A stretch of 10,854 bases of DNA from UHGV virus genome UHGV-0113369. One strand, given 5' to 3'. Every line of letters starts with the position of its first letter. Positions within the stretch are counted from its first letter, which is position 1. The notes beneath the pieces are model-generated. The model was not told where the DNA came from, made no database searches, and saw nothing but the letters and a program-made list of their open reading frames with translations. This DNA comes from a virus. Shown piece by piece: positions 3,727-9,747 of this stretch. The position numbers and the translations under genes are program-made.

Positions 3727-4668
3727 TCACCCCCTGAATCCTGCCGGGATCTGGCTGTAGTCCACGTTGTCGTAACTGGATTTGAAGTACGGATCTTCAC
3801 GTTTTTCTGTGTATGTGCTGACGGACGGCGATAAGCGCAGGGAAAGCTCATCCCATTTTTCCCGCAGCTTCGACGGGCTGAGCACGTTACGGCACCAGAA
3901 CGGATCGCGGCTGACGCGGCTGTACATCTCGCAGATTTGTTTGTGAGTACGACCATCCTGCACACACATCAGGCGAATTTCGTTTGCCCAGGCTGTCCAG
4001 TTCGGTTCTTTGGGACGAACCACCTCGCCGTCACATTCGGCAGCCTGCTCGTACAGGGCGATGATTTTTTTCCAGAGCCACTGTGCGCAGGTCAAATCAT
4101 CCTGCGTTCCCCACTGGCGCTTTTTAGGGCTGAATACAACCGCATCAGGATGGCGAGTTAAAAAATCCTGTTCAGCCGTCTGCGTGTCCGGTTGCGAAGC
4201 GTCCGGACGAGAAGGTTTTTTATCTGACGGTTCATGTTTTGATTTTACTGACGGATCCCCGCCAGATTCTGACGGGTGAAAACCCGCTTTTTTGCCAGAT
4301 TTCGACGCATCAAATTTTGACGGGTCAGATTTTGATGCGTCAGATTTTGACGGGTCAGAATCTGACAGTTGAGAAAATGCCGCTGCCTGAAGCTTCGCAA
4401 CGTTAAGCTGATAAACATTCGACGCATTGCGGTTACCCTGGCGACGCGCCTTACGCGTTAACCAGCCTTCTGCTTCCAGCCGTGCGATAGCCGTTCTGAC
4501 GGTACTCATCCCCGCGCCAATCTGACGGGCAATGGTTTCAATTGATGGCCAGCACACACCTTCGTCATTACTGAAATCAGCCAGGCGGGCCATAATTGCC
4601 ACGCTGGATAATTTCATGCCTGACGCAGCGCAACCATCCCATACATAGCCGGTTAATTTAGTGCTCAT
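3727..4668 (-). CDS. Phage replication initiation protein (N-terminal HTH, lambda O-like role) with internal pentapeptide repeats
   Basis: 313-aa ORF. N-terminal 90 aa look like a winged-helix/HTH replication-initiator domain. Central low-complexity repeat DPSKS/DASKS/DPSKF/DASKS is encoded by a 15-bp tandem DNA repeat. RBS GAGG 6 nt upstream of ATG 4668. Confidence 0.7.
   Translation of the reverse strand: MSTKLTGYVWDGCAASGMKLSSVAIMARLADFSNDEGVCWPSIETIARQIGAGMSTVRTAIARLEAEGWLTRKARRQGNRNASNVYQLNVAKLQAAAFSQLSDSDPSKSDASKSDPSKFDASKSGKKAGFHPSESGGDPSVKSKHEPSDKKPSRPDASQPDTQTAEQDFLTRHPDAVVFSPKKRQWGTQDDLTCAQWLWKKIIALYEQAAECDGEVVRPKEPNWTAWANEIRLMCVQDGRTHKQICEMYSRVSRDPFWCRNVLSPSKLREKWDELSLRLSPSVSTYTEKREDPYFKSSYDNVDYSQIPAGFRG
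4220..4368. repeat. Iteron array (candidate origin of replication) inside the initiator gene
   Basis: Four to five contiguous 15-bp units YCAGATTTTGACGGG at 4295-4368, another copy at 4262-4276, and degenerate copies near 4222-4254 (TATCTGACGG, TTTTACTGACGG). This parallels lambda ori iterons lying within gene O. Confidence 0.6.
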
Positions 4669-5931: not shown

Positions 5932-6558
5932 ATGGAAACGGTTGGTCAGCGTATAAAAGCTCTGAGAAGAGTTACCAGAACGTCCCAGAAAGAATTGGGT
6001 AAATTTTGTGGAGTAAGTGACGTTGCTGTGGGGTACTGGGAGAAAGACATCAATGTCCCTGGTGGGGAAGCACTTTCAAAATTAGCGAAGTTCTTCAATA
6101 CGTCAATAGATTACATTCTTTATGGTGCGGAGTTTGAAGGCAAACTCGTCACAAACATGCGCAGAGTTCCTGTAATCTCGTGGGTTCAGGCTGGGCAGTT
6201 TACTGAGTGCAGGACAGCAGAAGTGTTTAGTGAAGTAGACAAGTGGGTAGATACATCATTAAAGATTGGTGATAACTCATTTGCATTGGAGGTTAAAGGC
6301 GACTCCATGACTAACCCTAACGGCCTCCCAACAATACCAGAAGGCGCAACAGTGATTGTAGATCCTGATGCAGAGCCCCGGCATGGAAAAATAGTCATCG
6401 CTAGACTTGATGGAACAAACGAAGCCACAGTAAAAAAATTAGTTATCGATGGCCCTCAAAAGTTTTTAGTGCCATTAAATCCCCGGTACCCCAACATCCC
6501 GATCAATGGTAATTGCCTCATCATTGGTGTAGTCAAAGGAGTTCAATACGAACTCTAG
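5932..6558 (+). CDS. cI: CI-type prophage repressor (HTH_XRE N-terminal domain + S24 LexA-like autopeptidase domain)
   Basis: 208-aa ORF. N-terminal HTH (QKELGKFCGVSDVAVGYWEKD). C-terminal S24 peptidase motifs (EVKGDSMTNP with catalytic Ser; KKL with catalytic Lys). Divergent from the cro-like gene. Weak or absent SD, consistent with a near-leaderless pRM transcript as in lambda. Confidence 0.9.
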   Translation: METVGQRIKALRRVTRTSQKELGKFCGVSDVAVGYWEKDINVPGGEALSKLAKFFNTSIDYILYGAEFEGKLVTNMRRVPVISWVQAGQFTECRTAEVFSEVDKWVDTSLKIGDNSFALEVKGDSMTNPNGLPTIPEGATVIVDPDAEPRHGKIVIARLDGTNEATVKKLVIDGPQKFLVPLNPRYPNIPINGNCLIIGVVKGVQYEL

Positions 6559-6640: not shown

Positions 6641-6742
6641 TTATATCAAAGATAACGAACAGGTAGGACGCCCACGAAGTAGCCGCCGGTGGCGTATGAA
6701 TGACCGGATGATTCGTTAAATACTATGTGTAAGAGAGCGCAA

Positions 6743-6946
6743 ATGAACCGTTATTTCACATGCTCGTTTTGTGGCGCAAACGAGCTGCAGGCAAAAAAAA
6801 TCATCGCCAAAGGCGGAAAAGATGAAGTTGCTATCTGCTCTGAGTGCGTAGTCTTGTGTGTCGGGGCATTAATCGATATCAGCACAACTATTCAGTTCAC
6901 ACCAAATGAGAATGCGCCTTTAGATGCGCGGAAATCTGGAGGTTAA
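6743..6946 (+). CDS. Free-standing ClpX-type C4 zinc-finger (ClpX N-terminal ZBD-like) small protein
   Basis: 67 aa from ATG 6743 (RBS AAGAGAG 5 nt upstream). CSFCG...KIIAKGG...ICSECVVLC aligns by eye with the E. coli ClpX N-terminal zinc-binding domain ([30 protein letters not shown]). No AAA+ ATPase domain follows. Confidence 0.6.
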   Translation: MNRYFTCSFCGANELQAKKIIAKGGKDEVAICSECVVLCVGALIDISTTIQFTPNENAPLDARKSGG

Positions 6947-7393: not shown

Positions 7394-7646
7394 TTGATTT
7401 TCCTTTTATGTATACGGGCTTAAAAGGATACCACCGAGCCTGAAGTGGTGAAAAGACAGGCACATAACAGCTAAGTATTTTCAACCAGAGAGAATCCTTA
7501 GCGTTGTGGTGAATGCGGCTCAGCGCACGCGGGTTAAGGTTGAGGCTGACAGTCGACCTTCTGTGGATACCCACCCGCCTGGTGTGCAACCTTCGCCAGG
7601 CACCGGGAGGCACCCGGCACCACAACTTTATGCTGTGTGTAGTCTT

Positions 7647-7693
7647 GGCGGTACCAGCTTGTACCCTTGCTTCCGGCTGGTACCGTCCTTTTT
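7647..7693 (+). terminator. Intrinsic terminator-like hairpin in the leader upstream of the yfdP-like gene
   Basis: Perfect 10-bp stem CGGTACCAGC (7649-7658) / GCTGGTACCG (7676-7685), extendable by G-C and G-U pairs, loop ~15 nt, followed 3 nt later by TTTTT (7689-7693). Confidence 0.5.
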
Positions 7694-7782
7694 ACAAAAC
7701 AGAGAAGAGCATCACCGGACGACGGGCTCATAACCCAATCCATCCGGGCGGCAGTCACCGCAGGTGTTCTTCTCTGTTTTGT
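7694..7782. repeat. 20-bp imperfect inverted repeat pair flanking 49 bp
   Basis: ACAAAACAGAGAAGAGCATC (7694-7713) is the reverse complement of GGTGTTCTTCTCTGTTTTGT (7763-7782) apart from two G-T positions. The enclosed segment is GC-rich. Confidence 0.55.
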
Positions 7783-7830
7783 GGAGAAACTAACCGACCT
7801 TGCAGGGTCGATATGATGAGGAGCAGCAAA

Positions 7831-8193
7831 ATGGCTAGCGAACGCAGTACTGATGTGCAGGCATTTATCGGGGAGCTGGACGGCGGCGTATTTGAAACCA
7901 AAATCGGCGCAGTTCTCAGTGAAGTCGCTTCCGGTGTGATGAACACGAAAACCAAAGGTAAGGTCTCGCTCAACCTGGAAATCGAACCGTTTGATGAGAA
8001 CCGAGTGAAAATCAAACACAAACTCTCATATGTTCGCCCGACTAACCGCGGGAAAATTTCCGAAGAAGACACCACCGAAACGCCGATGTATGTCAATCGC
8101 GGTGGTCGCCTGACTATTCTGCAGGAAGACCAGGGACAGTTACTGACTCTTGCCGGTGAACCTGACGGAAAACTCCGCGCAGCAGGTCGTTAA
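7831..8193 (+). CDS. yfdP: YfdP-like prophage protein (120 aa)
   Basis: RBS AGGAG 7 nt upstream of ATG 7831. Length (120 aa) and position immediately upstream of a yfdQ-like gene match my recollection of CPS-53 yfdP. Upstream in-frame ATGs at 7813/7816 lack an RBS. Confidence 0.5.
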   Translation: MASERSTDVQAFIGELDGGVFETKIGAVLSEVASGVMNTKTKGKVSLNLEIEPFDENRVKIKHKLSYVRPTNRGKISEEDTTETPMYVNRGGRLTILQEDQGQLLTLAGEPDGKLRAAGR

Positions 8194-8258: not shown

Positions 8259-9083
8259 ATGTCTCAGAACTTAGACGCAACCGCAATTAATCAAATCCAT
8301 GCCCTTATTTCTGCTCAGGGTGTTAATGAAATTATCAGTAAGATTGGTGCCGATGCTGTGGCATTGCCTGAGAATTTCCGCATTCATGATCTGGAAAAAT
8401 TTAATTTAAATCGCTTCCGTTTCCGTGGTGCGCTTTCCACTGCCAGCATCGATGACTTTACCCGTTATTCTAAAGATCTTGCAGATGAAGGCACCCGCTG
8501 CTTTATCGATGCTGATAATATGCGTGCCGTCAGTGTGCTTAACCTGGGTACTATTGATGAACCAGGTCACGCAGATAACACCGCCACACTCAAACTGAAA
8601 AAGACAGCACCGTTCTCTGCTCTGTTGTCTGTTAACGGCGAGCGTAACTCCCAGAAGTCACTGGCAGAATGGATTGAAGACTGGGCCGACTATCTTGTGG
8701 GCTTTGATGCTAATGGTGACGCTATTCAGGCAACAAAAGCGGCTGCGGCGGTCCGTAAAATCACGATTGAAGCAAACCAGACCGCTGATTTTGAAGATAA
8801 TGACTTCAGCGGCAAACGCTCCCTGATGGAGTCTGTCGAAGCGAAGACCAAAGACATTATGCCAGTGGCATTTGAATTTAAATGCATTCCGTTTGAAGGT
8901 CTGAAAGAACGTCCGTTTAAATTACGCCTCAGCATTATCACTGGCGATCGTCCGGTACTGGTTCTGCGCATTATTCAGCTGGAGGCGGTGCAGGAAGAAA
9001 TGGCTAACGAATTTCGTGATCTGCTTGTTGAGAAATTCAAGGACAGCAAAGTAGAAACCTTTATTGGTACTTTCACCGCCTGA
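8259..9083 (+). CDS. yfdQ: YfdQ-like DUF2303 family protein (274 aa)
   Basis: 274-aa ORF with RBS GTGAGGA upstream. Length and gene order (before an HD-domain yfdR-like gene) match the CPS-53 yfdQ/yfdR arrangement as I recall it. Confidence 0.65.
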
Positions 9084-9095
9084 TTTCATTACTGC

Positions 9096-9117
9096 AAATG
9101 CCCCTGCGGGGGCATTT
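9096..9117 (+). other. GC-rich hairpin between yfdQ-like and yfdR-like genes (possible attenuator or mRNA-stabilising stem)
   Basis: AAATGCCCC (9096-9104) / GGGGCATTT (9109-9117) with 4-nt loop TGCG, then ATGG. No clean U-tract. Confidence 0.3.
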
Positions 9118-9210
9118 ATGGAAACGTAATTTACTCAATAATCGCCGGATGGTGAGGGATTCTTTTTACCAGAATTCAGCGCGGTGCAGCGCATATACGT
9201 GGAGAACAAA

Positions 9211-9747
9211 ATGTCATTTATTAAAACTTTTTCCGGGAAGCATTTTTATTATGACAGGATAAATAAAGATGACATCGTTATTAACGATATCGCGGTTTCC
9301 CTTTCAAATATCTGTCGCTTTGCAGGACATCTTTCACACTTCTACAGCGTCGCCCAACATGCGGTTCTTTGCAGCCAGCTGGTGCCGCAGGAATTTGCTT
9401 TTGAAGCGTTAATGCATGATGCAACAGAAGCGTATTGCCAGGACATTCCCGCACCACTGAAACGCCTTCTTCCTGACTATAAACGGATGGAAGAAAAAAT
9501 AGACGCCGTAATCCGTGAGAAATACGGGTTACCCCCGGTTATGAGTACGCCCGTGAAATATGCCGATCTCATCATGCTGGCAACCGAACGCCGCGATCTC
9601 GGGCTTGATGATGGCTCTTTCTGGCCTGTACTGGAAGGTATCCCGGCAACAGAGATGTTCAAAGTTATTCCACTGTCGCCAGGCCATGCCTATGGGATGT
9701 TTATGGAACGTTTTAACGAGTTATCGGAGTTACGCAAATGCGCATGA
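9211..9747 (+). CDS. yfdR: HD-domain 5'-deoxynucleotidase (YfdR-like, 178 aa)
   Basis: From ATG 9211 (RBS GGAGA). HD-domain metal-binding residues (H...LMHDATEAY...D). Length matches my recollection of E. coli YfdR. Confidence 0.7.
   Translation: MSFIKTFSGKHFYYDRINKDDIVINDIAVSLSNICRFAGHLSHFYSVAQHAVLCSQLVPQEFAFEALMHDATEAYCQDIPAPLKRLLPDYKRMEEKIDAVIREKYGLPPVMSTPVKYADLIMLATERRDLGLDDGSFWPVLEGIPATEMFKVIPLSPGHAYGMFMERFNELSELRKCA

Follow-up and report, generated by a model that had tools for sequence, protein, structure and literature searches.

A tRNA-mimicking structured RNA closed by a long inverted repeat in the leaders of SfV-like and other enterobacterial prophages

The Locus and Its Inverted Repeat

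The virus genome UHGV-0113369, whose whole 10,854-nucleotide stretch is called the window here, is an SfV-like lambdoid prophage of Escherichia coli (strain CE0021a is 100% identical over 501 bp, phage SfV 98.4%), and the element considered below is an inverted repeat at positions 7694-7782 in the leader of its left operon. On the plus strand a cI-type repressor gene (5932-6558) is followed by two small open reading frames (ORFs), an element like the STnc100/PasD small RNAs (sRNAs), an intrinsic terminator and the repeat; 3' of the repeat come the sequence GGAGAAA, a small hairpin, the yfdP ribosome-binding site, and yfdP, yfdQ and yfdR. In SfV the left operon runs on to xis and int, both of which begin about 2.5 kb downstream of the element. 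Folding places the terminator at 7647-7693 (+), with a 12-bp stem (7647-7658/7676-7687), a 17-nt loop and a T-run at 7689-7693, and the repeat begins 1 nt past that run. The terminator is a tL1-like boundary between the immediate-early and delayed-early left transcripts. Because the element lies 3' of this boundary, it forms only in early-left transcripts that have read through, and it heads the delayed-early part of the operon, of which yfdP is the first gene in the window.

Direct reading of the sequence gives a left arm ACAAAACAGAGAAGAGCATC (7694-7713) and a right arm GGTGTTCTTCTCTGTTTTGT (7763-7782) that pair over 20 bp around a core of 49 nt (7714-7762), the sole exceptions to reverse complementarity being G7709·T7767 and T7712·G7764 (G·T and T·G). 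A repeat search reports the same pair as 25-nt arms, 39 nt apart and 84% complementary. A preliminary description of this DNA had noted a near-perfect 20-bp repeat with two G-T positions, flanking a 49-bp core and embedded in a leader. This account is confirmed, as the repeat lies inside the untranslated leader, 48 nt 5' of the yfdP start codon (7831), and its fold is far beyond chance. As plus-strand RNA, 7690-7786 folds at -49.3 kcal/mol compared with -23.3 +/- 3.6 in 200 dinucleotide shuffles (z = -7.3), none of the 200 being as good, and the minus strand gives a weaker fold, at -45.6.

The 49-nt core consists of two adjacent conserved hairpins, so that the entire element is a three-way junction. 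Hairpin 1 (7715-7747, +) is predicted to have a lower stem CCGGA/UCCGG, a conserved internal loop and an apical stem-loop, GGGCTCATAACCC (7724-7736, +), in which three G-C pairs close the loop CUCAUAA. Hairpin 2 (7748-7761, +) folds as GCGG CAGUCA CCGC. The outer helix, with its 5' strand at 7694-7713 (+) and its 3' strand at 7763-7782 (+), is evident from direct reading, repeat search, fold and covariation. A GGAGAAA tail (7783-7789, +), conserved among variants of the window type (class A), may pair weakly with the U-tract of the terminator through U·G and U-A pairs, as judged from the fold, and there is no start codon at Shine-Dalgarno distance 3' of this tail. The element thus spans 7694-7782, or about 7690-7789 if the weak extension is counted. 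A second conserved leader hairpin, hairpin 3 (7795-7810, +; CGACC-UUGCAG-GGUCG), precedes the Shine-Dalgarno sequence GAGGAG (7818-7823) and yfdP (start 7831; together 7818-8193, +), the latter identified from the ORF list, the RefSeq annotation of the identical E. coli locus and PHROG 204.

Selection on a Plus-strand RNA

Variants of the element were gathered by BLAST against phage genomes, by an exact-pattern scan of IMG/VR and by a degenerate-pattern scan of one genome per GTDB species, and 81 unique sequences were left once non-matching hits had been removed. Their prophage hosts are Escherichia, Shigella, Salmonella, Citrobacter, Enterobacter, Kosakonia, Leclercia and Phytobacter, along with Pseudescherichia, Pseudocitrobacter, Mixta, Erwinia, Pantoea, Buttiauxella, Klebsiella and Raoultella. 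Pattern hits in Advenella and Pedobacter went unrecognised by a covariance model of the element (R1) and were accordingly treated as chance; a hit assigned to "Chryseobacterium," which has a typical enterobacterial sequence, is probably contamination. Carriers include Shigella phages SfV, SfII and SfIV, Salmonella ST64B, Stx2-converting phages, the e14 prophage of E. coli K-12 and about half of the complete E. coli genomes (2810 of 5426 with a 105-nt query).

Covariation was tested in a MAFFT alignment (A1) of 26 diverse class-A sequences; a mixed-strand alignment (A2) was excluded from the counts, as a palindromic helix brings reverse-strand hits with it. Across the 26 sequences, 95.8% of the pair cells of the three-way junction are standard, versus 36-49% in controls whose partners are shifted by 1-3 columns. 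Covariation scores 0.150, compared with at most 0.064 in these controls, and 0 of 500 shuffles reach the observed value. Eight pairs have changed on both sides, and the window's CAGAG/CUCUG, for example, corresponds to CACAC/GUGUG in Kosakonia. In the outer helix (A1 columns 5-24), which is 95.2% paired, double-sided changes affect four pairs, as in the exchange of G-C for C-G at column pair 13/89, and in hairpin 2 they affect two of the four pairs. The lower stem of hairpin 1 likewise covaries among the 81 unique variants, its third pair being G-C, U-A or A-U and its fifth G-C, A-U or G·U.

The direction of these changes also identifies the strand. Cells with G·U number 44 and those with A·C 7, and the covariance model gives 110 bits for the plus strand and 38 for the minus strand; this G·U excess, together with the strand scores, indicates that the selected molecule is the plus strand, which is the sense strand of the operon. 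A plus-strand three-way junction is under purifying selection, and the element is very probably a functional RNA structure rather than a DNA element. Among 65 class-A variants the outer helix has 19-23 pairs (median 22), and compensatory changes keep it at this length. The "unusually long helix" that the preliminary description expected at the RNA level, of 20 pairs in the window, is thus borne out, and its suggestion of an RNase III target is plausible, as the 20 pairs reach the approximately two helical turns (at least 20 bp, mostly Watson-Crick) of an RNase III substrate. In many lineages one mismatch, C·C or C·U, interrupts the middle of this helix (A1 column pair 15/87). Hairpin 2 differs in sequence and length between lineages, from a 4-bp stem to inserts of up to about 40 nt, and the long-insert variants still fold as a hairpin at the same position.

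The surroundings of class-A elements are regular as well. Of 79 unique upstream contexts, 76 have the T-run of a terminator 0-4 nt before the helix, and 75 of them have a stable hairpin ahead of the T-run; the terminator stems are unrelated between lineages. On the 3' side, the best-scoring downstream hairpins in 54 unique contexts have the loops UGCA (18) and GGCA (17), the stems beneath them being unrelated (GGCGGU/GCCGCC and AGCGCCU/AGGCGCU, for example), so that an apex U(U/G)GCAG recurs on stems that covary. Equivalents of hairpin 3 in loci L130-L157 have the stems CGACC/GGUCG, GGCGG/CCGCC and GCGCC/GGCGC, and hairpin 2 of the element often has the same UUGCAG loop in other lineages; the UUGCAG-type hairpin may be a repeated protein-binding hairpin. 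The first gene 3' of a class-A element can be yfdP (51-100% identity), a gene for an RdgC-like recombination-associated protein (PHROG 724) or one for a YfdR-like HD phosphohydrolase; in e14 it is xis. That the first gene varies among yfdP, rdgC-like, yfdR-like, xis and holin genes argues against a gene-specific cis regulator.

A Core That Matches the Initiator tRNA Anticodon Arm

Within hairpin 1 a run of about 22 nt, YGACGGGCUCAUAAYCCAAUCCA, is almost unchanged across at least 14 genera of Enterobacterales, and the stems drift around this core. Its apex, GGGCUCAUAACCC (7724-7736), is identical to positions 29-41 of the anticodon arm of E. coli initiator tRNA (tRNAfMet), the printed sequence of which reads ...GUCGGGCUCAUAACCCGAAG... 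(PMC8887418). The match has the features of a tRNA anticodon stem-loop, namely a 7-nt loop, U33 and a purine at position 37, in the form GGG-CUCAUAA-CCC. The 13-mer was counted in 2.85 Mb of fetched loci: 212 occurrences lie in the element and one lies outside it, in the Pedobacter locus that the pattern search had itself retrieved. The idea that the element is a true tRNA was rejected; ARAGORN is negative, and similarity to tRNAs is limited to 13-14 nt.

The same core is found in a different architecture in phages of Klebsiella and Raoultella (class B). These have the same hairpin 1, GACGGGCUCAUAAUCCAAUCCA, and a hairpin 2; the lower stem is CCUGA/UCAGG, which is compensatory relative to CCGGA/UCCGG. 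The outer stem is just 6-7 bp long (UGGCCUG/CAGGCCR) and is followed by CCA, giving an RCCA end. In 13 of 14 class-B loci searched with ARAGORN, the element begins a few nucleotides past the end of a genuine tRNA (Asn, Arg, Thr or Phe), and where it was checked the gap is 5 nt, equal to the spacing between the tRNAs of the array, so that the element occupies the place of the last array unit. Class B thereby approximates the acceptor stem, CCA end and array spacing of a tRNA. In two annotated class-B phages the array lies in the late-region leader, in one of them downstream of an annotated Q gene, and an intrinsic terminator separates the element from the holin gene; the tRNA array, RCCA end and terminator together indicate that in these two phages the element is a tRNA-like stable-RNA gene and not an mRNA leader. 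A third arrangement, in two Pantoea loci (L008 and L153), has a long outer stem of unrelated sequence situated just past a terminator in a late leader.

In two of the Klebsiella phages (L003 3079-3165 and L004 3079-3166) a conserved stretch of about 60 nt runs from the element to a strong intrinsic terminator. Rfam returns only noise for this stretch, in which the late leader could encode another small RNA.

A Proposed Mechanism

The reading proposed here is that the helix is the closing stem of a conserved plus-strand RNA core, and that processing of this helix and a core mimicking the initiator tRNA provide the mechanism; its probability is put at roughly 0.4. The 20-23-bp outer helix would act as a stalk for double-strand-specific processing, for which the likely enzyme in enterobacteria is RNase III. 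A cut there would detach the delayed-early mRNA from the sRNA and terminator on its 5' side, and the two-hairpin core would be freed or presented. This core would be the functional part. Its hairpin 1 reproduces the anticodon stem-loop of the initiator tRNA exactly, and the core would be recognised by a host factor that normally reads the anticodon arm of tRNAfMet. Candidates include a tRNAfMet-directed nuclease such as VapC, to which the core would be a decoy, as well as methionyl-tRNA synthetase (MetRS), initiation factor 3 (IF3) and the P site of the 30S subunit. Class B would reach the same core by a second route, through RNase P and 3' trimming of the acceptor-like stem.

Two regularities lead to this scheme. 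As the same core is found either with a long helix or with tRNA-type ends, the simplest unifying idea is that both kinds of flank are processing devices, and the invariance of the loop then implies that a factor which all Enterobacterales share, and which reads the anticodon arm of tRNAfMet, recognises it. The position at the head of terminator-gated operons would further suggest expression during lytic development. Enteric VapC cleaves tRNAfMet, in hosts that include Shigella, Salmonella and E. coli (PMC10264068), and both tRNA-targeting defences and phage counter-measures to them are well documented (PMC10264068, PMC12445682). The parts of the scheme differ in strength. That the helix is a processing stalk has slightly less than an even chance, and a functional role for the tRNAfMet mimicry is a shade more tentative; action in trans and the identity of the partner are inferred. 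That the core is specifically a nuclease decoy is unlikely. The same low standing applies to its elaboration as a dedicated anticodon-arm decoy that would shield initiation from tRNAfMet-directed nucleases (VapC-type PIN toxins), or would reprogram initiation for lytic growth, and that would be delivered by two interchangeable routes, excision by RNase III at the stalk or tRNA-type processing as the last unit of an array.

Several observations weigh against the proposed mechanism. Just 3 bp of the anticodon stem are copied, and the conserved GAC and AAUCCA that flank the apex are without a counterpart in the tRNA, so that the true ligand of the element may be something else. The loop itself varies in some copies, being CUCAUUA, with U at tRNA position 37, in Salmonella ST64B and in a Klebsiella spallanzanii prophage, and UUAAUAA (GGGUUAAUAACCC) in the defective e14 copy. 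Searches for a wider likeness to tRNA are negative: ARAGORN predicts 0 genes in the window and in 16 loci does not once call the element, the Rfam tRNA model has no match when searched on the Klebsiella version, there is no D arm, T-loop or cloverleaf (the hairpin-2 loops differ from T-loops), and global alignments to tRNAfMet, tRNAMet, tRNAIle2 and a phage tRNA-Met are no better than shuffles outside the anticodon arm. The acceptor stem of 7 bp, discriminator, CCA and array spacing of a tRNA are lacking in the window, where the 20-bp helix is followed by GGAG. The GGAGAAA tail and hairpin 3 of class A, beside the ribosome-binding site, hint at a role as a leader in cis. That RNase III processes the helix and a small RNA is freed is a prediction from geometry and from the comparison of class A with class B.

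Competing Explanations

In the preliminary description the arms had been likened to the termini of a miniature inverted-repeat transposable element (MITE) or to a recombinase or integrase site, an interpretation of which only the remark on the long RNA helix survives, as a plausible RNase III target; the mobile or recombination part is now scarcely credible. It has in its favour that 20-bp near-perfect terminal inverted repeats are present and that the unit is a conserved island among variable mosaic modules, inside which one recombinant crosses over. That recombinant (L090 9210-9333) joins a 5' arm of the window type to a 3' arm and hairpin 2 from another lineage, with two mismatches in the helix, and the switch of lineage falls inside the conserved core, which thus doubles as a patch of homology for mosaic exchange. 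In mosaic relatives of the window, similarity begins at about 7645, with the terminator included, and ends at about 7790-7807; these homology breakpoints lie away from the ends of the repeat. Nor does the element behave as a transposable unit. Model R1 finds one copy in the window; carrier E. coli genomes have it at a median of one place and at most five; and in most of 155 fetched loci homologues of cI, yfdP, yfdQ or yfdR flank it at fixed distances, the yfdP start lying 100-130 nt past the core. The additional dispersed copies for which a search had been suggested did not appear, as the fetched loci place the element in early-left or late leaders of prophages. No direct repeat indicative of a target-site duplication is present in the flanks CCTTTTT and GGAGAAA, and no empty site was found among the IMG/VR loci fetched via YfdP, 80 of 80 being occupied. 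The short inverted arms and 6-8-bp overlap of att-, res- or dif-type sites are absent, and arms 49 bp apart do not resemble core-type recombinase sites. Selection acts instead on RNA pairing: the compensatory changes and the asymmetry between G·U and A·C are typical of an RNA helix and constitute the covariation that the preliminary description had itself named as favouring a purely RNA role, and the Klebsiella versions keep the core yet are without the long repeat. Taken together, these results leave both the mobile and the recombination proposals unsupported, and refuted on the terms that the preliminary description had set. A reading of the element as part of a protein-coding gene can be given practically no weight. 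Three ORFs (7506-7733, 7513-8193 and 7667-7816) overlap the element and annotations do exist, as ymfH in K-12 e14 and as a RefSeq "frameshifted hypothetical protein" in this prophage type, but substitutions track base-pairing rather than codon position, PGAP requires a frameshift to build its ORF, and element lengths of 97, 98, 99, 100, 101, 116, 120, 122, 123 and 124 nt reflect indels that are not multiples of three and so exclude coding. K-12 ymfH (L009 2322-2633) overlies the e14 copy and the region just upstream, and the PGAP feature (L002 8107-8417) overlies an STnc100-like sequence and the element; both are probably non-coding.

Among explanations that accept an RNA, the main rival, itself rather doubtful, is a purely cis-acting leader module for the first delayed-early gene, composed of the three-way junction, GGAGAAA and hairpin 3. 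Such a module could stabilise the processed 5' end, hinder Rho from loading on an untranslated leader of about 140 nt or switch translation, and the likeness to the tRNAfMet arm would be functionally meaningless. The lambda N leader RNase III hairpin and the RNase III sites of T7 early mRNAs are analogues of such a module, and it would account for the constant position of the element between the terminator and the first ribosome-binding site of an antiterminated operon and for the conservation of hairpin 3 and GGAGAAA beside the Shine-Dalgarno sequence. Yet the near-invariance of 22 loop and internal-loop nucleotides across genera, around which the stems drift, is nothing that a stabiliser or insulator requires, the gene that follows is not conserved, and the Klebsiella core is a member of a tRNA array with an RCCA end, followed by a terminator in two annotated phages. 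A leader specific to yfdP was rejected, since an rdgC-like, yfdR-like, xis or holin gene may come first. Quite unlikely is a cis-acting processive antiterminator in the manner of HK022 put, in which the nascent core would bind RNA polymerase once the first terminator is passed, so that the later terminators of the long left or late operon no longer stop it. The put RNAs are about 70 nt long with two stem-loops (PMC9378689), and the element, too, is a pair of neighbouring stem-loops whose internal loops are conserved, and it heads long operons with a terminator at their start; scans of the small ORFs from cI to the element against protein families yield no N-like antiterminator. Against this, a search of the 40.7-kb HK022 genome with model R1 is negative up to E = 10, so that homology to put is absent, the element lies 3' and not 5' of the terminator that gates the operon, the 20-bp closing helix is foreign to put, and at least one Klebsiella phage has the element in the late leader past an annotated Q gene, flanked by tRNA-type processing signals. 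The identity of the apex to the tRNAfMet anticodon arm, and the tRNA neighbours and RCCA end of class B, might also mark a decayed tRNA pseudogene or a tRNA-derived attachment-site remnant without present function, but this is highly improbable: conservation over many genera with compensatory changes points to purifying selection on a fold that is not a cloverleaf, the element sits in a leader in mid-operon far from int and att, and decay of the loop is seen in e14, a clearly defective prophage.

Relation to Known Systems and Significance

Hairpins cleaved by RNase III in other phages are a natural point of comparison with the helix, and those compared were the lambda N-leader site, the lambda sib/tI retroregulator and the R1.1-type sites of T7. 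Like the element, these sites lie in untranslated parts of antiterminated operons and have a helix about two turns long. The sib structure also forms only in transcripts that have read through a terminator, and the element can draw in the U-tract of its terminator; the central mismatch of many variants (C·C or C·U) is reminiscent of internal loops in the T7 sites. The known hairpins have no sequence relation to the element, however, and carry a simple loop, whereas its helix encloses a nearly invariant two-hairpin core and its cleavage is a prediction.

Mimics of the anticodon arm and tRNA-like RNAs include the E. coli thrS operator, the tRNA-like structures of viruses and the stable RNAs C and D of T4, the last two in the T4 tRNA cluster. 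As in these, the anticodon stem-loop is copied exactly, and the Klebsiella element has an acceptor-like stem, an RCCA end and a slot in a tRNA array; it differs in having an extended "anticodon" arm and no D arm, T-loop or cloverleaf, and the window version is without CCA. Phage tRNAs that counter tRNA-targeting defence (PMC10264068; for P2 OLD, PMC12445682) are likewise phage RNAs with the anticodon arm of a host tRNA. Those, however, are functional replacements in which loop mutations escape cleavage, whereas the element keeps the host loop and cannot decode, so that it would need to act as a decoy or competitor; no phage RNA shown to act in this way was found in the searched literature. HK022 put shares with the element a cis-encoded RNA of about 70 nt with two stem-loops near the start of a lambdoid early operon in a phage without N, and differs from it in the points of position, closing helix and tRNA-array variant.

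The RNase III hairpins and the anticodon-arm mimics or tRNA-like RNAs come nearest in function, but the element belongs to none of these systems. Rfam 15 has no meaningful match to 7670-7830 (E up to 10) or to the Klebsiella version, high-sensitivity scans returning only spurious microRNA and riboswitch matches with E > 0.1, and a scan of the whole window finds the upstream STnc100 as its only meaningful match. Comparison by eye with the K-turn, boxA/boxB and pairing of a loop to the Shine-Dalgarno sequence gives partial matches. No description of the element and no print of its core sequence was found in the literature searched, most subscription journals lying outside that search. It is thus a tRNA-mimicking structured phage RNA previously undescribed in Rfam 15 and the searched literature.

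If the proposed reading is true, a very common and unannotated prophage RNA is a structured tRNA mimic, an RNA player joins the field of tRNA-targeting immunity and phage counter-measures, and a natural case is at hand of one RNA core delivered through two processing routes. If the decoy version in particular is true, about half of E. coli genomes would carry an RNA-only device for anti-defence or translation control. For annotation, the consequence is that K-12 ymfH and the PGAP "frameshifted hypothetical protein" overlie non-coding RNA elements. The hypotheses are directly testable in tractable phages such as SfV, ST64B, LLS and mEp460.

Neighbouring Features of the Window

The direct 5' neighbour of the element is the sRNA-like element of the STnc100/PasD family (7473-7696, +; Rfam RF02076, 43.4 bits, E = 7e-07, with a gathering score of 47), a family of prophage sRNAs (bioRxiv 10.64898/2026.05.13.724894). 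It has the terminator in common with the element and is a distinct entity from it, the Rfam match stopping at 7696. An obligatory partnership between the two was rejected, as the element follows 31 of 136 sites with the STnc100 motif and is absent after the other 105. The conserved motif of STnc100, CACCGGGAGGCACCCGGCACCA, is very widespread on IMG/VR prophage contigs, several of which carry two copies, and Rfam finds no STnc100 match in the early region of HK022. Between yfdQ and yfdR a weak second STnc100-like match (window 9075-9254, +; 19.8 bits, E = 0.8) ends with a hairpin and a U-run, and may represent another, diverged copy or else a terminator within the left operon.

Just 3' of the repressor gene, and within the immediate-early left transcript, a 73-aa ORF (6725-6946, +) matches the C4 zinc-finger domain of ClpX (PF06689, E = 1e-10). 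Within the O-like replication-initiator gene (3727-4668, minus strand) lies an array of iteron-like repeats of the GTCAGATTTTGAC type, each of about 15 bp and present in four or five copies at 15-bp spacing (4222-4370), which is probably the phage origin and which gave a spurious mir-5880 match in Rfam.

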